A DNA stretch of 64,000 bases from a virus. Lineage: Duplodnaviria > Caudoviricetes. The notes under the pieces were generated by a model. It did not search any database and was not told the DNA's origin. It saw only the letters and a program-made list of their open reading frames with translations. The translations under genes were made by a program, and so were the position numbers. Location of the stretch: the IMG/VR virus record IMGVR_UViG_3300021185_002017. One strand, 5' to 3'. Positions 3,841 through 63,398 of this stretch are shown here, piece by piece (positions within the stretch are counted from its first letter, which is position 1; each line of letters starts with the position of its first letter).

Positions 3841-3887
3841 TTATTTCCTGTGTGTGAAAAATTTAGTTTATAACTATTATACTATTC

Positions 3888-5162
3888 TTATTTAGCAATG
3901 TCAAGTGTAGCATTTCTAAAAAATCTGTAATTTTCTAGAGGGTTACTATTGCCATCTTCGTAAAAAGCCATAGGTTTATCTGAACTACTTGGATACTTAT
4001 CGAATTTTACCTTAACTACATTATCTTTCTGGAGTTCTGGAGCATTATACATTAAGTAGAACAAACTGTTCTCTACAATGCTTTTAACTGCTCTAGCACC
4101 CATGCCAGTTGTAGTTGCTCTCTTCGCAACATCTCTATAGTAATCATTGCTAAACTCTAACTCGATGTTGTTATAAATCATAAGTTCTTTTACTTGATCA
4201 ATTACACTATTTTTAACATTCTGCATTATTTCTACTAACTGCTCTTCTGACAATGTGTCTAATGTAGTTATAATAGGTAGTCTTCCTACAAGTTCTGGTA
4301 TTAGTCCATACTTAACAACATCATCTGGTTGTAACGATTTTAGTATTATATTAGACTGGTCTTTTGAGATAACATTGCCAGTGAACCCAACACCTGTTTT
4401 TTGTTTTATTCTTTTAGTTATAAATTCTTCAATGCCTACAAATGCACCACCTACAATAAACAAAACATTTGATGTATCAAATTCTGTTAAGTCTTCGCTA
4501 AATCTTTTTGCCGCGGCTCCTAGTTTAACTTTAGTAACTGTGCCTTCGATTAAACGCAATAGTGCTTGTTGCACACCCTCACCACTTACATCTCTGGTTG
4601 TAGTACTGCTTTCGCTTTTACGAGTTTTCTTATCTATCTCGTCTATGTATATGATGCCTTTTTGTGCAAGGCTTATGTCATAGTCTGAAACTGCAAGTAG
4701 TCTTTCTAACACTGCTTCTACATCATCACCTACATATCCTGCTTCTGTTAGTGTTGTAGCATCTGCAATAGCAAATGGTACATTAAGTTTTTTAGCAAGT
4801 GTTTTAGCAAATAAAGTTTTACCTGAACCTGTTGGACCTATCATTAGTACATTACTTTTTTCTACTACAACATCGCCTGTGCTTTTGTGGTTTATTCTTT
4901 TGTAATGGTTGTATGCAGATGTACTAAGTATTTCCTTAGCCTCATCTTGTCCTGTAATATATAAATTTAAATAGTCGTGTATTTCTCTAGGTGTTGGGAT
5001 ATCTTCTAGCTCTTCAAAGAGTAAATGCTTATCATCATCGAGTATTTCATAACTGATAGAAATACATTCATTGCAAATGTAAACGTTAGGACCAGCAATT
5101 AACTTTTCAACTTGATCTCTATTCTTGCCGCAAAAATTACAGTTTAACTTTGTATCGGTCAT
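3888..5162 (-). CDS. clpX: ATP-dependent Clp protease ATPase subunit ClpX
   Basis: C4 zinc domain CNFCGK..ICNEC, Walker A GPTGSGKT, EAGYVG pore loop, RDVSGEGVQQ, VGF loop. Confidence 0.95.
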   Translation of the reverse strand: MTDTKLNCNFCGKNRDQVEKLIAGPNVYICNECISISYEILDDDKHLLFEELEDIPTPREIHDYLNLYITGQDEAKEILSTSAYNHYKRINHKSTGDVVVEKSNVLMIGPTGSGKTLFAKTLAKKLNVPFAIADATTLTEAGYVGDDVEAVLERLLAVSDYDISLAQKGIIYIDEIDKKTRKSESSTTTRDVSGEGVQQALLRLIEGTVTKVKLGAAAKRFSEDLTEFDTSNVLFIVGGAFVGIEEFITKRIKQKTGVGFTGNVISKDQSNIILKSLQPDDVVKYGLIPELVGRLPIITTLDTLSEEQLVEIMQNVKNSVIDQVKELMIYNNIELEFSNDYYRDVAKRATTTGMGARAVKSIVENSLFYLMYNAPELQKDNVVKVKFDKYPSSSDKPMAFYEDGNSNPLENYRFFRNATLDIAK

Positions 5163-9224: not shown

Positions 9225-9252
9225 ATTATACACGAACAATGTTCAATGTCAA
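9225..9252 (-). promoter_or_regulatory. sigma70-type promoter for queD
   Basis: TTGACA-16 nt-TATAAT. Confidence 0.7.
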
Positions 9253-11983: not shown

Positions 11984-12012
11984 ATTATATACTATGTTAA
12001 CCCACCTGTCAA
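11984..12012 (-). promoter_or_regulatory. sigma70-type promoter
   Basis: perfect TTGACA-17 nt-TATAAT. Confidence 0.85.
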
Positions 12013-15266: not shown

Positions 15267-15295
15267 ATTATAAACTAACACAACGAGTATGTCAA
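15267..15295 (-). promoter_or_regulatory. sigma70-type promoter for uvdE
   Basis: TTGACA-17 nt-TATAAT. Confidence 0.8.
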
Positions 15296-15557: not shown

Positions 15558-15586
15558 ATTATACTAAGAAGTAGGTGTTATGTCAA
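15558..15586 (-). promoter_or_regulatory. sigma70-type promoter for RNA cluster
   Basis: TTGACA-17 nt-TATAAT. Confidence 0.8.
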
Positions 15587-30071: not shown

Positions 30072-30100
30072 ATTATACTATAATCTCCGTTGTTTGTCAA
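30072..30100 (-). promoter_or_regulatory. sigma70-type promoter
   Basis: TTGACA-17 nt-TATAAT. Confidence 0.8.
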
Positions 30101-35570: not shown

Positions 35571-35599
35571 ATTATACAGTCTTTGGGTATAACTGTCAA
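35571..35599 (-). promoter_or_regulatory. sigma70-type promoter for tRNA cluster
   Basis: TTGACA-17 nt-TATAAT. Confidence 0.8.
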
Positions 35600-37376: not shown

Positions 37377-37580
37377 CTAACATTCAAATTTGTGTTTATT
37401 ATACAGTTCTTGAGCAATGTTGTCAAGTCCTAAACCACAACAAATGTTCATTTGTCGACGAATCTCTTCTGCTTGTTCGTTGCCACGTTTCCATGCACGA
37501 TGATCATCACTATATTGATAAGTCCAATCGTGTGTTTTTAATAACTTTTCAAGGGTATCTAAGTCTGGATGTAATGACAT
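37377..37580 (-). CDS. conserved small phage protein
   Basis: HDWTYQYSDDHRAWKRG motif. Confidence 0.7.
   Translation of the reverse strand: MSLHPDLDTLEKLLKTHDWTYQYSDDHRAWKRGNEQAEEIRRQMNICCGLGLDNIAQELYNKHKFEC
37398..37426 (-). promoter_or_regulatory. sigma70-type promoter (inside ORF end)
   Basis: TTGACA-17 nt-TATAAT. Confidence 0.75.
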
Positions 37581-38547: not shown

Positions 38548-39057
38548 TTATACTAAAAATGACTCCCAACTTGGGTGTTTAATTGTGAATCCGAGTTGTT
38601 TTCTTTTAGCAACTAAATCCCAATAGTCTGGGCGATAAGGTGTGTGCAATGGTTTAATGTCCATTCTATTTGATTTAGAACTGTTGCATGGGTTACAAGC
38701 AGTAACAATATTAGTCCAAGAAGTTTTTCCTCCTTTGCTAATAGGAATTACATGATCTAATGTTAGTGTGCTTTGTGAAAAAGGCTTGGCGCAATATTGG
38801 CAAGTGAATAAGTCTCTGAGTTGAACGTTGTATTTTGAAAATCTAGGCTTACGGCCATGCCGGGCCATATTTTTTAGCATGATCACTGCCGGCACTTTAG
38901 TTTCCCAACTTTCACTACGAACTATCCAGTCGTCGTACCATTCAAGTACATTTACTTTGTCTAACCATAGGTATGTGATTGCTTCCTTCCATTGCACTGT
39001 TGAAGGAGGTAGCATTGAAATCGGCTGGCCATCTGCATTTAAAACAAGTGTATCCAT
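38548..39057 (-). CDS. HNH endonuclease (McrA-like)
   Basis: LVLNA, RDLFTCQYC, TLDHVIP, WTNIVTACNPCN. Confidence 0.9.
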   Translation of the reverse strand: MDTLVLNADGQPISMLPPSTVQWKEAITYLWLDKVNVLEWYDDWIVRSESWETKVPAVIMLKNMARHGRKPRFSKYNVQLRDLFTCQYCAKPFSQSTLTLDHVIPISKGGKTSWTNIVTACNPCNSSKSNRMDIKPLHTPYRPDYWDLVAKRKQLGFTIKHPSWESFLV

Positions 39058-40181: not shown

Positions 40182-40210
40182 ATTATACAGTTGTATATAC
40201 CATATGTCAA
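40182..40210 (-). promoter_or_regulatory. sigma70-type promoter
   Basis: TTGACA-17 nt-TATAAT. Confidence 0.8.
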
Positions 40211-47824: not shown

Positions 47825-48820
47825 ATGACTTTAGAAAACATACGAATAGACACAACAACACACAGTCGCGTTTTTAATCCACTAAGCGCCGCTGGTCAGT
47901 GGCTTTGTTCTGTGTTCAAGCATAGATCAATAGGCGACATAGAAGCATCATATCCTACCTTAGTTGAAATCACCCAAGACTTACCAGATTTAAAATCTAT
48001 TACAATGGATAACGAATACGGTGATGCATTAGAGTGGAGTAAACTTGCACCTTTTGTGCGTGTTATGACTATACAAGGTGTATACATTATGGTTAACACC
48101 TACGGAATGGCTGAGAATAAGGCAGTAAAAAGTATAGTAGATGCTAGTTGTTTATACAAAGAGCAAGATGCAAGTATAAACATTATCTTTAATATTGACG
48201 GCATATACGAACAATGTGGTAAAGTATTCTTAGGTGCTGAATGGAATCATATTAAAGAAAACATAATAACTGTAGGTAACAAAGCACACATAAAATTTTA
48301 CAAATTTAAGCACAATGCTCATCAACAACCTGCAATAGAACATTTTTGTAGAGCTATAGGTGCTACATTTGAAGTACTAGAAGACCCGTTGTTTGGTAAT
48401 AAATGCTTTAGTGTAATATCTAAACAAGGTAAATGGTTATACGATATTCATCCTGTTGGTTCAAATCAACCAACATTGGCACAAACAGCAATAGGATGGA
48501 ACTTATTAAAAACAAAAGTTAGAAGTATTAAAGGAACACCAATCGACGAACTAGAAAAATTACCTGTACCAATAACAGCAAAAGACTTGGACACAGATGA
48601 TATTATTAATATTACTATCAAAGGACATGTTATCAAAGGTTCGGGTATTGCTCAAATATTTAGTTACGCACTATGCGGTGATTGGGATTATTACGAAGTA
48701 GATACAAGTAATGCATATAACTTATCAGTAATGCAAGAACTTGCTAAGTTTGTAAGAATAGATTTGTCTACTATAAACATATACAATAATAGTATTACTG
48801 ATATATTAGAAGTTGTTTAA
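47825..48820 (+). CDS. radical-SAM-like protein lacking the CxxxCxxC motif
   Basis: TTHSRVFNPLS in place of the Cys motif; NTYG, FNIDG, FKHNAHQ. Confidence 0.45.
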   Translation: MTLENIRIDTTTHSRVFNPLSAAGQWLCSVFKHRSIGDIEASYPTLVEITQDLPDLKSITMDNEYGDALEWSKLAPFVRVMTIQGVYIMVNTYGMAENKAVKSIVDASCLYKEQDASINIIFNIDGIYEQCGKVFLGAEWNHIKENIITVGNKAHIKFYKFKHNAHQQPAIEHFCRAIGATFEVLEDPLFGNKCFSVISKQGKWLYDIHPVGSNQPTLAQTAIGWNLLKTKVRSIKGTPIDELEKLPVPITAKDLDTDDIINITIKGHVIKGSGIAQIFSYALCGDWDYYEVDTSNAYNLSVMQELAKFVRIDLSTINIYNNSITDILEVV

Positions 48821-49086
48821 CTTACTTCAACAGTTGGCGAACCGCTACTAACATTATGTCCACATGTAGCAGTACTTCCTTGTTTAGCAGGAATACCGCC
48901 GTCTGCTAACACTGTAGTTGCACCATTTGACACTAGTGTAGGCGAAGTATGTGGTGCTTTGCCATGAGGAGCAACCTTATCTCCTATTAAAGAAACTTTT
49001 TTATTATCAGCAAATACTGTTGATGCTCCAGGTCCTAGTATAACACCTTTTGCTGTATCTGTTTTTACTCTTGCTATCTTTGCCAT
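48817..49086 (-). CDS. PAAR-like tail spike tip (gp5.4-like)
   Basis: GD..PHG..H..S..V..G..ATCGH..SGS..V. Confidence 0.8.
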   Translation of the reverse strand: MAKIARVKTDTAKGVILGPGASTVFADNKKVSLIGDKVAPHGKAPHTSPTLVSNGATTVLADGGIPAKQGSTATCGHNVSSGSPTVEVS

Positions 49087-57377: not shown

Positions 57378-57836
57378 TTACCATACAAGCACCAACACAT
57401 GCCTATATCCTTTAGTAAGTTTTGTTACACCGTGCAATCTACCTTTGGGATGAAAAATATGGTCGCCTGATTTCATGTCAACAATTTCAAACTTATCTGT
57501 TTTTATACAAGTTTCTCCACCTTGTAAGTCGCTAGATGAATCTAATAAAATAATACTGGTTCCATAAGTACAGTCATCGTAGTGCATGTCGGCTTTTGCA
57601 CCAGCATTATATTTTAATAGTTTTATAACTGGCTGATGATCATCAGGTATATCCTCTGCAGGCTTTGTCACCAGTGATAGTATTTTGCTGTATAATGAAT
57701 CTGTTTTGTCTATGTAGCATTTTAGAACATCAGTAAGATATTCTCTACTTATGGGGCCGGTTTTTTCACCTTTTGCACCTGCGTAGAAATCGCCGGATTC
57801 AATTAAAGGTGTACATAATGTTAATAGTTTGTTCAT
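57378..57836 (-). CDS. 2OG-Fe(II) oxygenase
   Basis: LLKY..HYD..GGET..HGVT..G.RHVLV. Confidence 0.8.
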   Translation of the reverse strand: MNKLLTLCTPLIESGDFYAGAKGEKTGPISREYLTDVLKCYIDKTDSLYSKILSLVTKPAEDIPDDHQPVIKLLKYNAGAKADMHYDDCTYGTSIILLDSSSDLQGGETCIKTDKFEIVDMKSGDHIFHPKGRLHGVTKLTKGYRHVLVLVW

Positions 57837-58507
57837 TGCAATGAGTAATAGTCTGCTAATCTCATTGCCCATTTATTGCAGTATTCTTCGAATTCGTCAC
57901 CATTAATAACAAAGTCAGCGTATTTGCCTTCTCTGTCGATCATTAAAATAGCAACTTGTTTGATGTTTGTACCAAACATTTCATTGTGTGCTAGTGCGTA
58001 TGCACAGCCTTGCATGAAGTAATCTTCAATCCATTCACGCTTTTTAATCTTTTTAGCAGTCTTGAAGTCTATAATACTTTCAACACCGTTAAACATGCCC
58101 ACAGCATCGCTTGTACCTGCGTATAAGCCTTGAGCTATTAGTGCTACTTCAACACCCCATATCTCATCTACTTGGCTTAAACCTTTGTCGATCATTTCAT
58201 CAACCATGTTTTTAGCCATAATACTTATGTGGTTATTACCTTTGATTTCGTACTCTTCAAGTAATACATATTTTTCTAAAGCATTATGTACTTTGGTACC
58301 TAAGCCTGCACTTTCTTGACTAATTCTGTTTGCTTCAGCATCGCCTACTCGCTTACGCCAGTTAATAAGTGCTGTCTTATCACCAGTATCAGAAAGTACT
58401 GTTGTGACACTTGGCACTGGTTGATTATCATCACCTGTGTATTGGCGTTGTCCGTTTTTTGCTGTTACCCTTTTGAGAGTCGGGTAAGTGAATTTTTCTA
58501 CAAGCAT
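57833..58507 (-). CDS. PD-(D/E)xK exonuclease
   Basis: PSVTTVL, GTKVH, E..YAGTSD..IIDFKT, QGCAYA. Confidence 0.88.
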   Translation of the reverse strand: MLVEKFTYPTLKRVTAKNGQRQYTGDDNQPVPSVTTVLSDTGDKTALINWRKRVGDAEANRISQESAGLGTKVHNALEKYVLLEEYEIKGNNHISIMAKNMVDEMIDKGLSQVDEIWGVEVALIAQGLYAGTSDAVGMFNGVESIIDFKTAKKIKKREWIEDYFMQGCAYALAHNEMFGTNIKQVAILMIDREGKYADFVINGDEFEEYCNKWAMRLADYYSLQ

Positions 58508-58534: not shown

Positions 58535-58563
58535 ATTATAACATGTGATGGATGTTGTGTCAA
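58535..58563 (-). promoter_or_regulatory. sigma70-type promoter
   Basis: TTGACA-17 nt-TATAAT. Confidence 0.8.
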
Positions 58564-61051: not shown

Positions 61052-61273
61052 CTATAATTTTTGTTTTGCTGAGTATATAATGTAGCACTCACACCCATTT
61101 TTGTTTACTTTATTGAAAATATTTTTTTGATGCATTACATCACAGAGATGTGCATCACGCTCAGACAGTTCATTTAATTTTAAACCGCCAAACAGTTCAG
61201 CCTGATCATATAGTTGTGTTTCAAACTTGTTAATTAGACTTAAGATGTTATCTTTACCTTTTACTGCTTTCAT
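61052..61273 (-). CDS. hypothetical protein
   Basis: coupled to upstream gene. Confidence 0.65.
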   Translation of the reverse strand: MKAVKGKDNILSLINKFETQLYDQAELFGGLKLNELSERDAHLCDVMHQKNIFNKVNKNGCECYIIYSAKQKL

Positions 61274-61947
61274 ATCTTTTGCTGATGCCTTGACTTTTTA
61301 GGCTTACCGTATCCGCCTGTTTGTAAAGTAGCCTCGGCATGCATTGCTGCCATGTGCTTCTTATATTTTTTAGTGCCTTTTTTATGTGGGCTTTTGCCTT
61401 CAGGCATAGTATCTTTGATATCTTTAACCATATCAGGATGTCTAAATTTGCGTAAAATCATTGATTCTATTTGTCGTGTTCTTTCTCTAGTAATACCAAA
61501 CATTTTGCCAACATCTTCTAAACTATGTTGGTCCTCACCGTCAAGTCCATATCGTAAGGCTATAAGTTTTCTTTCTGCAGGTTTTAGTGTATCTAACATT
61601 TTAGAAAGTTTTTCATTTCTCTGCCTGTCCCTTATGTCTTTATCTAAGTCTTGATCGTATGTTAAGTCGTCATCGTCGAATGAATCAAAGTCTTGTGCTT
61701 TGTTTACAGGATCTCTATCATCTAAATGTGGCATAGGTTGTTGCCTGTAAGTTTTGCCATCTGGATTATACAGAGATGCTTGTTGATTTGCATTTGCTTC
61801 GCTTGTTTTTTTCTTCTTTTTCTTTTTAGGAGTTGTATTAGCAAACACACTTGCATTAGGTCTTTTTTGCATAGCACCCATAGGAGCTGCAACGGTAGCA
61901 ATACCACCTGCACTAGTTGTTTCTTGAATAATATCGTTGATCTTCAT
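61270..61947 (-). CDS. modular protein with free-standing sigma70 region 4 HTH
   Basis: LRYGL..SLEDVGKMFGITRERTRQIE..LRKFRHP; leader MKINDIIQE. Confidence 0.85.
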   Translation of the reverse strand: MKINDIIQETTSAGGIATVAAPMGAMQKRPNASVFANTTPKKKKKKKTSEANANQQASLYNPDGKTYRQQPMPHLDDRDPVNKAQDFDSFDDDDLTYDQDLDKDIRDRQRNEKLSKMLDTLKPAERKLIALRYGLDGEDQHSLEDVGKMFGITRERTRQIESMILRKFRHPDMVKDIKDTMPEGKSPHKKGTKKYKKHMAAMHAEATLQTGGYGKPKKSRHQQKI

Positions 61948-61968
61948 AGTAGTATTTACCGTTTTTAA

Positions 61969-62505
61969 TTATGTTAGTCTAACGTTTACAATGTCCCAGT
62001 TAATAATACGCCACATATTGTTTAAGTATTTGCCTTTGTCATGTTGGTAATCTAATGCCCAAGCATGTTCCCACCAGTCAACTAACATTGCAATGTCATT
62101 TTTAACTTGATGATTAACTATTGTTTTGATATCACCGGATGTACTCATGTATACCCAGCCGCTACCTTGTATCTTCATTGCTACTTCTTCGAACTGTTCT
62201 TTGAATGTAGCAAAGTCTCCATACTTACTGTCTATAAGTTCTTTACTTGCACCAGTAGGATTATTACTACCACCTGGTGCTTTCAATTGTGGAAAAAATA
62301 TATTGTGTAAGAATGCACCTGCTTCCATAAACTGTGCATCGCCTTTGCCCTCGTTAAATTTTGTAACGTATGCTTTAGCAAGTTTACCATAGTGAAAGTT
62401 AATTGTGTCCTCACTCATAACAGGATCGAGATCGCTTTTACCGTAAGGTAATCTTTCTTGTACAAGTACTTTCTTTTCTTCTGTTAAAAAATCATTTAAG
62501 TTCAC
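61969..62505 (-). CDS. sod: Fe/Mn superoxide dismutase with N-terminal extension
   Basis: LPY, FHYGK, LHN, GSGW, DWWEHA; four metal ligands present. Confidence 0.92.
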   Translation of the reverse strand: MNLNDFLTEEKKVLVQERLPYGKSDLDPVMSEDTINFHYGKLAKAYVTKFNEGKGDAQFMEAGAFLHNIFFPQLKAPGGSNNPTGASKELIDSKYGDFATFKEQFEEVAMKIQGSGWVYMSTSGDIKTIVNHQVKNDIAMLVDWWEHAWALDYQHDKGKYLNNMWRIINWDIVNVRLT

Positions 62506-63398
62506 TTCTTTTTTCCGCCTTTCATGTTAGCACACCAGTGATACATTTTGCCTTTTTCACCACTATACTTTTTAGCCTTTGCTCTTAAACTTGTTACAGA
62601 ACCTTTACAACTAGCACCTGCTTTTTTGACTCTACCAGGCTTGCTTTTGCCTTTCTTCTTACCGTCTGCAAAGTTTTCGTCGATTGCATTTAATAATGCT
62701 TGAAGGTCTTGCATTGCTTCTATTGTTTCGTATATGCTACCGCCAAACTTAACACTTGAAGTTTTCTTCTTTTTCTTCTTTTTCTTTTTCTTGTACGGTG
62801 CTAGTGTACCTATTCCTAAAAATCCTCTACTAACAGGAGCATCCATAGTAGGAGCATCGCCTGGATCAGCACCACCTACATCACCACCTGCATCACCACC
62901 GGAATCGCCTCCGCCTGTTGCTGCACCACCATCACCACCTGCACTTGCACCACCACTGGCTCCACCTGAGCCTCCTGCTCCGGCTCCACCGCCGGCTCCA
63001 CCACCACCGCCTCCGGCGCCGTCTTCGTATGTTTCTTCGTCTCTGGCTTTACTACTGTAATGCTTTATTAATTCTTCTATAGTAGCATCGACTCTAATTG
63101 CTTTAACTTTATCTAAGTCTAATTCTAATGCTACATCATATCTATGATGTCCGTTGACAATAAAATTATTTTTGTCTATAATTATAGGTCTTATACTACC
63201 ATCATCAAAGCCACGCTTTGCTTTATCTTTTAATCCTTTTACTCGTTGCTTTTGCACAGGCTTTAGATTAGATACTGATATGTTTCCTAACTTATATGAG
63301 AAAGGGCCGTCGTCAAGATCAGGTTGCCTAATCTGAGGCATAATCTTTCGCGGGAAGTTTTTTTCTTGCTCCGGCCTTTGTAACTCAGAAAGTTTCAT
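62502..63398 (-). CDS. ParB/sulfiredoxin-like domain, Gly-rich linker, poly-Lys and basic module
   Basis: PIIIDKNNFIVNGHHR; 40-aa G/A tract; K10. Confidence 0.7.
   Translation of the reverse strand: MKLSELQRPEQEKNFPRKIMPQIRQPDLDDGPFSYKLGNISVSNLKPVQKQRVKGLKDKAKRGFDDGSIRPIIIDKNNFIVNGHHRYDVALELDLDKVKAIRVDATIEELIKHYSSKARDEETYEDGAGGGGGGAGGGAGAGGSGGASGGASAGGDGGAATGGGDSGGDAGGDVGGADPGDAPTMDAPVSRGFLGIGTLAPYKKKKKKKKKKTSSVKFGGSIYETIEAMQDLQALLNAIDENFADGKKKGKSKPGRVKKAGASCKGSVTSLRAKAKKYSGEKGKMYHWCANMKGGKKK

Follow-up and report, generated by a model that had tools for sequence, protein, structure and literature searches.

Why does a phage protein carry a piece of a bacterial primary sigma factor, and what could the phage use it for? 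The question is raised by a gene on the minus strand (61270..61947) of a 64,000-nucleotide stretch of DNA, called here the window, from the IMG/VR record IMGVR_UViG_3300021185_002017 of a virus of the Caudoviricetes. The product was originally predicted to be a free-standing sigma70 region 4 inside a capsid-targeted, protease-processed protein that is delivered with the virion. The best explanation, to which we give an even chance of being right, is that the gene is the single-copy, variable cargo locus of marine T4-related jumbo phages and that its product would be an injected decoy, made of sigma regions 3.2 to 4 and freed by a protease. The stop codon of the gene overlaps the ATG of the next one (ATGA), and an identical copy of the protein is present in a public assembly (P0002). 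The parts of the gene are the following.

61270..61947, minus strand: whole gene, 225 codons and a stop, coding for 225 amino acids.
61921..61947, minus strand: leader, residues 1-9 (MKINDIIQE), with Ile-x-Glu at its end; it resembles a T4 capsid-targeting sequence.
61798..61920, minus strand: N-module, residues 10-50 (TTSAGGIATVAAPMGAMQKRPNASVF, then a run of seven Lys, with TSE at the end); kept in family members with unrelated cargo.
61711..61797, minus strand: cargo part 1, residues 51-79, conserved extension ANANQQASLYNPDGKTYRQQPMPHLDDRD, from the alignment of five homologues.
61597..61710, minus strand: cargo part 2, residues 80-117, region 3.2-like finger and acidic linker with Asp in place of Glu; it aligns with cyanobacterial SigA 288-325.
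61423..61596, minus strand: cargo part 3, residues 118-175, sigma regions 4.1 and 4.2, helix-turn-helix with the -35 recognition helix TRERTRQIE.
61399..61422, minus strand: end of the cargo and Met-Pro-Glu junction, residues 176-183 (DIKDTMPE).
61333..61398, minus strand: C-module, residues 184-205 (GKSPHKKGTKKYKKHMAAMHAE), a hyperconserved basic peptide of 22 residues, SPKK-like and partly helical.
61273..61332, minus strand: C-terminal tail, residues 206-225 (ATLQTGGYGKPKKSRHQQKI).

The nature of the cargo was established by profile searches and structure prediction, both of which upheld the original assignment of sigma70 region 4 to residues ~111-171 (61435..61617), together with its TRERTRQ and LRKFRHP motifs. 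Sigma70_r4 (PF04545) was the single Pfam domain of the protein (residues 118-170, E 3e-13, 49.5 bits, cut-off 24.1), and the match obtained in PHROGs also indicates sigma factors. In the PDB, phmmer found 66 sigma chains, the best being domain 4 of Staphylococcus aureus sigma-A (4g6d, 8.6e-17), and the top matches were isolated region 4 domains of primary sigmas. The AlphaFold model, calculated from a 56-sequence alignment, was confident for residues 101-175 only, with a predicted local distance difference test (pLDDT) score of 81-97. When this modelled piece was compared by Foldseek, sigma-A domain 4 (4g6d, 4g8x) was matched with a template modelling (TM) score of 0.85 and a root-mean-square deviation of 1.4-1.6 Å, and further matches were 1ku7 and 1rio. 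The residues which read the -35 element, R154, E155, R156, R158 and Q159 (equivalent to R584, E585, R586, R588 and Q589 of E. coli), were invariant in the 5 phage copies and 39 cellular sigmas compared.

The similarity to sigma factors does not begin with region 4. In the alignments with cyanobacterial SigA it extends upstream to about residue 79-80, and the Pro-Val/Ile (PV/PIG) motif of the region 3.2 finger lies 42 residues from region 4.1. By our own count on the E. coli sequence, this presumably equals the spacing in E. coli sigma. Because of the upstream alignment and this spacing, the insert reads as the whole C-terminal end of a group-1 (primary) sigma factor, from region 3.2 through the last residues, and is thus more than region 4. 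Residues 1-79 showed no sigma similarity in the PDB search or in the alignment to cellular sigmas, and no region 2 or 3 domain was detected by the Pfam scan of the protein. The earlier statement that regions 2 and 3 are missing was therefore correct for the domains and has to be amended for residues 80-117, which align with the region 3.2 finger and linker. Since region 2 is absent, the protein is by homology a fragment of a sigma factor and not itself a sigma factor. A complex prediction with cargo residues 96-183 and the E. coli beta flap (825-945) gave a score of 0.14 against a mark of 0.34, which carries no weight either way.

The surroundings of this fragment were revealed by comparison with relatives. 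In a search of 5.8 billion proteins two kinds of matches were obtained: RpoD proteins, and dozens of proteins matching only the first ~50 and the last ~40 residues. The latter share the N-module (MKINDIIQE TTSAGGIATVAAPLGGMQKRPNASVF, then a Lys run) and the C-module (E GKSPHKKGTKKYKKHMAAMHA), with or without a further tail, and their middles are wholly different. One such family protein is carried by a circular contig of 326,582 bp at matching gene order (superoxide dismutase, cargo gene, 73-amino acid gene, 129-amino acid gene, 435-amino acid gene). On both sides of the cargo this contig is 93-97% identical to the window at the nucleotide level; the homology ends at 61809 and restarts at 61401, so the gap covers residues ~47-182, that is, only the cargo. 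Since the sigma cargo is missing in a near-identical phage, it is dispensable. The sigma module was also found on a 105-kb contig, at 71% nucleotide identity, in a protein with another N-terminus and another C-terminal domain.

Minimal forms of the gene exist as well. At the syntenic position of a 250-kb contig (G002) there is a 55-residue form, consisting of the leader, the N-module and the Lys run, and this gene is followed by homologues of the 435- and 841-amino acid proteins in the order seen in the window; elsewhere, in a 68-residue form, the N-module is joined straight to the C-module. These forms suggest that the ancestral gene coded for a small basic protein and that domains were inserted later. 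Judged from these comparisons, the sigma piece can be exchanged as a cassette, while the modules at the two ends are conserved. A separate insertion relative to the 326-kb contig is found at 57378-57872 (minus strand): an open reading frame (ORF) of 164 amino acids with weak similarity to 2OG-Fe(II) oxygenases, the flanks of which are contiguous in the relative (L001 13929-13937).

The extent of the family was estimated by a profile search with the end modules against 1.84 billion representatives, clustered at 50% identity. Altogether 462 clusters share the N-module and/or the 22-residue C-module around unrelated cargo, and 136 family proteins were compared directly. Among the matches listed the N-module is always N-terminal; the C-module occurs in most of the best matches listed of the 462 clusters and is either terminal or internal, in proteins of 43-1261 amino acids. 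The window and the related viral contigs have one copy of the N-module per genome. The modules are combined in various ways: in P0003 the N-module is followed by two other modules, then by the sigma module and finally by the C-module, P0013 has this composition minus the sigma module, and P0063 and P0072 have two modules in reversed order. Pfam scans of nine other family proteins found no domain in their cargos. In the AlphaFold model the N-module is predicted to be disordered (pLDDT <50), and the helix of the C-module spans residues 193-210. The tail ATLQTGGYGKPKKSRHQQKI is limited to the closest relatives, and in other lineages ...MHAG is the end of the protein. A signal peptide or membrane anchor was considered for the N-module and rejected, the hydrophobic stretch being short and predicted to be disordered.

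The C-module is kept almost letter-perfect while its surroundings are unrelated. In the loci compared it is encoded by 32 DNA versions with a third-position identity of only 0.61, and Ser is specified by both AGY and TCN codons. This free synonymous change points to selection on the peptide and not on the DNA; a recombination site or an RNA element was rejected for the same reason.

Several family proteins end in ...RLAGL, like the C-termini of the gp22-type scaffold proteins of related phages (...IKRLAGLN, ...LRKLAGM). The scaffold proteins of the related jumbo phages (loci L085, L086, L095) end in ...(K/R)(K/R)LAGL(N) or ...RKLAGM, and several large carriers of the 22-residue peptide end in or contain an LAGL/LAGM motif (L038, L057, L067, L069; P0030, P0122). 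This end may be a shared C-terminal peptide for docking in the capsid interior. Two further C-terminal modules recur in the modular proteins. One of them is ...KFYVY.KNPKTGKVKKVSFG...RH.C....K.KA.YWSCR..W, for which Pfam gave no match where scanned (P0007), and the other is ...PRYGLVKGGKWW; their carriers are the C-termini of P0007 and P0009, together with L038, L053, L066, L093, P0141, P0147, P0148 and P0160.

Could such a protein be loaded into the capsid and processed there? In T4 the prohead protease gp21 cuts glutamyl-alanyl and similar bonds, after Glu at Leu/Ile-x-Glu, and takes off the 10-19-residue capsid-targeting sequences (CTSs) of the internal proteins (PMC9026906, PMC5694885). 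A change of the Glu to Asp prevents processing in T4. In the present family a leader of this kind opens 111 of 134 proteins, and nearly all carriers of the C-module start with the pattern M-[KRN]-[ILV]-x-x-[ILF]-x-E. Three other genes of the window start with a leader of the cargo-gene type (MNISDITE, MKIHNITE and MLIREVISE; none in 403 internal control segments), and the specific pattern M-[KNL]-I-x-[DEN]..[IV]-x-E is enriched in the window; a generic hydrophobic-x-Glu at residues 4-12 of all window proteins is not (12% vs 14%).

The junctions inside the proteins point in the same direction. In front of the C-module (E/GKSPH, the slash marking the junction) P3 was hydrophobic in 41 of the 54 contexts, which are distinct and not phylogenetically independent (76% vs a background of 27%, binomial p 1e-13), and P2 and P4 were hydrophobic in only 7-9%. 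In its residue preferences this junction thus follows the rule of the T4 prohead protease, hydrophobic-x-Glu. When BLAST high-scoring segment pairs were taken as automatic module boundaries, their edges fell inside diverged modules and were too noisy, so hand-read junctions and the C-module statistics were used. Every module start read by hand came right after Glu (TSE/A, LKE/A, IDE/A or G, VAE/S, VDE/S, LSE/Q, TNE/G, VKE/G), and by eye eight other modules start just after Glu, each in at least 2 unrelated upstream contexts. The candidate cut sites in the window protein are E9 (IQE), E50 (TSE), E183 (MPE) and perhaps E205 (HAE); the original prediction had already marked the leader MKINDIIQE, TSE/A (E50) and MPE/G (E183), all of which are present.

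Glu is scarce in the cargo itself. The ratio of Asp to Glu is 11:1 in residues 80-117 and 16:1 over residues 52-122, and in the linker of P0003 and P0007, which is predicted to be exposed, it is 15:0. In the same columns of the 39 cellular sigmas E/(D+E) is 0.60, and the value for the window proteome is 0.50. In other window proteins 234 segments of 71 residues are comparably rich in acidic residues, and every one of them has at least two Glu. Inside the sigma-4 fold no Glu has a hydrophobic P3. Such an avoidance of Glu suggests that a captured host domain has adapted to a Glu-specific protease nearby.

A protease of the required kind is encoded in the lineage. Peptidase_S77 (PF03420, the family of T4 gp21) was found on two viral contigs carrying the modules, G001 (307 kb, 99 bits) and G002 (250 kb, 92 bits), and G002 is syntenic with the window around the cargo locus. 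A 330-kb Tara scaffold with a protease of the same environmental clade has the portal, two small core proteins, gp21, the scaffold and gp23 in T4 order; no link was found between this scaffold and the window phage. Among cultured phages, the nearest proteases were found in the jumbo phages Phosso, PA5oct, SCTP-2 and Atu_ph07. The region has no near DNA match among the INPHARED phages, and tblastn with the whole protein against INPHARED gave only RpoD-like region 4 matches, mostly in contaminant or host DNA.

The 21 nucleotides between the superoxide dismutase gene and the cargo gene contain GGTAAATA, followed by five bases and the ATG. We counted 12 instances of the arrangement TAAATA-N5-ATG in the window; 10 stand at the starts of ORFs of at least 45 amino acids, and other spacings occur 0-3 times each. 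The boxes are placed as follows.

61953..61958, minus strand: TAAATA box (GGTAAATA) exactly 5 nucleotides before the ATG of the cargo gene; candidate -10 element of a T4/RaK2-type late promoter.
7351, 19983, 22752, plus strand: genes with (A)TAAATA-N5-ATG.
61947, 61028, 49086, 39473, 36465, 34014, 7280, minus strand: genes with (A)TAAATA-N5-ATG.
24491, plus strand: gene with TAAATA at a spacing of 6-7.
39057, 38528, minus strand: genes with TAAATA at a spacing of 6-7.

The exact T4 late box TATAAATA is not enriched in the window (6 vs 8 expected); only the shorter TAAATA at the fixed spacing is. Since 5 nucleotides leave no room for a Shine-Dalgarno sequence, the mRNA may be leaderless or nearly so, and the position of the element would suit a late promoter whose transcripts begin at the start codon or next to it. 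Leaderless late mRNAs would be unusual for T4-type phages. Among the genes behind a TAAATA box are those of a PAAR-motif spike protein (phrog_281, 48817-49086, minus strand) and an HNH endonuclease (phrog_16726, 38548-39057, minus strand). From the box we infer that the cargo gene is expressed late.

The early genes seem to be served by a different type of promoter. The dozen TTGACA promoters of the original prediction were counted as exactly 12 perfect TTGACA-N16-18-TATAAT sites against 0.1 expected, 11 of them on the minus strand, and the TTGACA hexamer alone is not enriched (47 vs 62 expected).

1891-1918, 3876-3904, 9225-9252, 11984-12012, 15267-15295, 15558-15586, minus strand: perfect -35/-10 sites.
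30072-30100, 35571-35599, 37398-37426, 40182-40210, 58535-58563, minus strand: perfect -35/-10 sites.
63154-63182, plus strand: perfect -35/-10 site.

For its early genes the phage evidently depends on host sigma-70 promoters of consensus sequence.

Has the sigma module been maintained, or was it picked up recently? The 29-residue extension ANANQQASLYNPDGKTYRQQPMPHLDDRD is nearly invariant in the five homologues, and its two most conserved peptide patterns had no encoded relative in 185,579 species genomes. The sigma-4 pattern scan of the same genomes gave only two sigmas, both from metagenome-assembled genomes of Clostridia, at 50% identity. Carriers of the sigma module are rare, about 5 clusters among the 5.8 billion proteins. 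Across three lineages and two protein frames the ratio of nonsynonymous to synonymous substitution rates (dN/dS) was 0.22 for the cargo as a whole; it was as low as 0.055 in the extension and linker, measured over the first 55 aligned cargo codons (residues 52-106), and reached 0.43 in region 4. By these ratios the sigma module is under purifying selection, and the lack of a close cellular donor argues for an old, maintained capture and not a recent accident.

On these grounds the following mechanism can be proposed. The base gene product would be a small basic protein composed of the leader, the poly-Lys N-module and, in many lineages, the 22-residue GKSPHKKGTKKYKKHMAAMHA; foreign domains would be spliced in frame between the end modules and exchanged among near-identical phages. 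The protein would be made late, and its end modules would carry it into the prohead core, where a gp21-type prohead protease would cleave it on the C-terminal side of the junction Glu residues (E9, E50, E183, perhaps E205). The freed sigma(3.2-4) fragment of ~15 kDa would be stored alongside the DNA, the Lys-rich peptides acting as counter-ions, and would be ejected into the next host. There it would be a decoy of the host sigma region 4, occupying or titrating its binding partners; the candidate targets are the beta flap and RNA-exit channel of RNA polymerase, -35 DNA, class II activators and Rsd-type anti-sigma factors. The targeting and processing part of this proposal has strong indirect support from the cassette structure, the junction rule, the Glu avoidance, the gp21-type protease in relatives and the late-type box, all of them read from sequence. 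Packaging, cleavage, injection and an effect on RNA polymerase are inferences. Of the original interpretation, the free-standing region 4 of a primary sigma, without region 2 and set in a protein of leader, basic modules and Glu-ended junctions, stood; virion delivery and processing keep the rank of a proposal.

Several observations weigh against the injected decoy. An Arg of region 4.1 which is conserved in cellular sigmas is Ala in all phage copies; we take it to be R554 in E. coli numbering, a DNA contact. The gp21-type protease was seen only in syntenic or related contigs, the window being a 64-kb piece, and the N- and C-modules were found in no cultured phage (INPHARED; protein and DNA searches with the C-module stayed at chance). 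P3 is non-canonical at 2 of the 4 proposed sites, being Thr in TSE-50 and His in HAE-205, and the C-module is more strictly conserved than a spacer or charge neutraliser requires, so its role may differ. The absence of the cargo from the 93-97% identical phage belongs here as well. Finally, since the early promoters of the phage are themselves perfect TTGACA/TATAAT sites, a -35 or flap decoy acting at time zero would harm the phage itself. Plain -35 inhibition would thus be self-defeating, and the titration of an inhibitor that binds sigma-4, with sigma-70 set free, would fit better, although this is speculation.

The injected decoy may be one product of something wider. In the broader form, which we advance only tentatively and think rather improbable as a whole, marine T4-related jumbo phages would have a widespread load-and-inject cassette system, in which the leader and N-module together with the 22-residue docking peptide load arbitrary domains and processing at Glu frees them, and in which the sigma decoy titrates, for example, an Rsd-type anti-sigma factor and so reprograms the host polymerase at time zero, leaving sigma-70 free to serve the perfect-consensus early promoters of the phage.

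The same gene could also work without being packaged. It is possible, and in our judgement unlikely, that the protein is a late intracellular regulator whose sigma(3.2-4) part competes with sigma-70 for the beta flap or the -35 boxes, in an AsiA-like late shut-off of host and early promoters, the end modules being those of a small Lys-rich DNA-binding protein which receives domain insertions. The late-type box directly at the ATG would agree with this, as would the strong -35/-10 early promoters, which need a later turn-off, and the resemblance of the C-module to an SPKK-type DNA-binding peptide; moreover, late transcription of the T4 type uses a flap-binding mimic of sigma-4, gp33 (PMC2988020). 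However, such a regulator would leave the hydrophobic-x-Glu junctions, the avoidance of Glu in the linker, the CTS-like leader and the dozens of unrelated cargos in one frame unexplained, and for a core regulatory switch its absence from a nearly identical phage is odd.

A second alternative, also improbable in our opinion, accepts the packaging and denies the sigma piece any transcriptional role. The protein would then be a packaged internal protein serving as head filler, DNA counter-ion or raw material for the evolution of anti-defence functions, with sigma-4 as a tolerated passenger or a generic DNA-binding domain inside the capsid. The huge diversity of the cargos, most of them without recognisable function, and the dispensability and rarity of the sigma cargo speak for it, and in T4 the IPII and IPIII proteins are still without a clear role (PMC9026906). 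A mere passenger, however, would hardly be kept under purifying selection in three lineages and two frames, above all in the extension, with all -35-contact residues invariant, and the 50% identity of the best cellular relative speaks for an old capture that has been maintained. That the fragment is one half of a split sigma, giving region 4, and with it -35 recognition and flap binding, to a gp55-like region-2 protein of the phage for a class of phage promoters, is very improbable: T4 late transcription does combine gp55 with the sigma-4 mimic gp33 (PMC2988020) and the fragment retains the linker of region 3.2, which passes through the polymerase, but a near-identical phage whose flanking genes are the same lacks it, the modules on either side of it are common to unrelated cargos, and no promoter class with both a late box and TTGACA was seen, the TAAATA boxes being without upstream -35 elements.

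The neighbourhood of the gene also has features of its own. Directly upstream lies the gene of a compact Fe/Mn superoxide dismutase (61969-62505, minus strand; Pfam Sod_Fe_N and Sod_Fe_C), the position of which is kept in close relatives. Beyond it (62502-63398, minus strand) a ParB/nuclease-like protein is encoded, which has a Gly-rich linker, 11 consecutive Lys and, at its C-terminal end, a module rich in Cys and Lys (...SLRAKAKKYSGEKGKMYHWCANMKGGKKK). This C-terminal module recurs in the metagenomic protein P0077, fused there to the N-module of the cargo gene, which suggests that modules also move between the cargo gene and the adjacent ParB/nuclease-like gene.

How does the proposed injected decoy compare with known systems? 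The closest parallel is found in T4, where diverse internal proteins share only a CTS and where Alt is injected and modifies RNA polymerase (PMC3012670, PMC9026906, PMC5694885), both of its ends being trimmed by gp21 (ITE-6, LTE-619) (PMC9026906, PMC5694885). Among the residues of T4 internal proteins only Lys contacts DNA (PMC3012670). As in IPI, IPII, IPIII and Alt, a short N-terminal leader has Ile/Leu-x-Glu at its end, the mature parts are rich in Lys and basic, close relatives differ strongly at the locus and keep the targeting part alone, and a gp21-family protease is present in the lineage; in Alt, which acts on RNA polymerase, there is moreover a propeptide at each end. Unlike the T4 internal proteins, however, the present family has a conserved N-module of 41 residues and a hyperconserved C-module of 22 residues beyond the ~9-residue leader, several Glu-ended modules per protein and a single-copy locus, and it is known from sequence alone. 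No sequence similarity to the T4 internal proteins was detected. In phiKZ and SPN3US, which are likewise jumbo phages, many ejection and inner-body proteins inside the head are processed by a gp21-related protease acting at x-x-Glu, each propeptide being cleaved behind Glu in several places (PMC5694885). Their motif is Ala/Ser/Gly-x-Glu, whereas P3 is hydrophobic here, as in T4, and they have neither a shared hyperconserved peptide nor a cassette locus.

On the side of transcription, T4 gp33 is comparable in being a phage stand-in for sigma region 4 on the polymerase flap, as is proposed here, in a T4-type phage with (T)ATAAATA late promoters. Unlike the window protein, gp33, the known sigma-4 mimic (PMC2988020), is not homologous to sigma, does not read DNA, and is essential and cytoplasmic. 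The window protein is by its sequence a true homologue of sigma regions 3.2-4 with the -35 helix intact, dispensable and set in a cargo frame. T4 AsiA, gp67 of the S. aureus phage G1, the cellular Rsd, WhiB-type proteins and lambda cI all use the same sigma-4 interface, and the best PDB matches of the cargo include sigma-4 solved with such partners (4g6d, 1tlh, 2p7v, 6ono, 1rio). However, these proteins bind sigma-4, while the window protein is itself sigma-4, and it would therefore act by mimicry and titration. We know of no described phage sigma-4 decoy, and our literature search found no report of a phage-encoded one and no paper with the string of the 22-residue peptide. Compared with the T4 internal-protein/Alt system, the long, conserved modules at the two ends are new, as are the architecture of several beads, the hyperconserved 22-residue peptide and the host sigma fragment as cargo.

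If this reading is true, phages can turn part of a host sigma factor into a decoy that is injected. Phages are known to act against sigma region 4 through binders, such as AsiA and G1 gp67, or through non-homologous mimics, such as gp33, and the decoy mode is, as far as we know, undescribed. The capsid-targeting principle of T4, so far established for a few internal proteins of coliphages, would then hold for ~460 modular, recombining clusters in ocean viromes, and the grammar of leader, Glu-ended beads and 22-residue peptide would let the injected proteome of uncultured jumbo phages be predicted from sequence, many cargo domains becoming candidate effectors of host takeover or anti-defence. 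The 22-residue peptide, which is among the most conserved short elements in these genomes, could then be a natural packaging tag for phage engineering.

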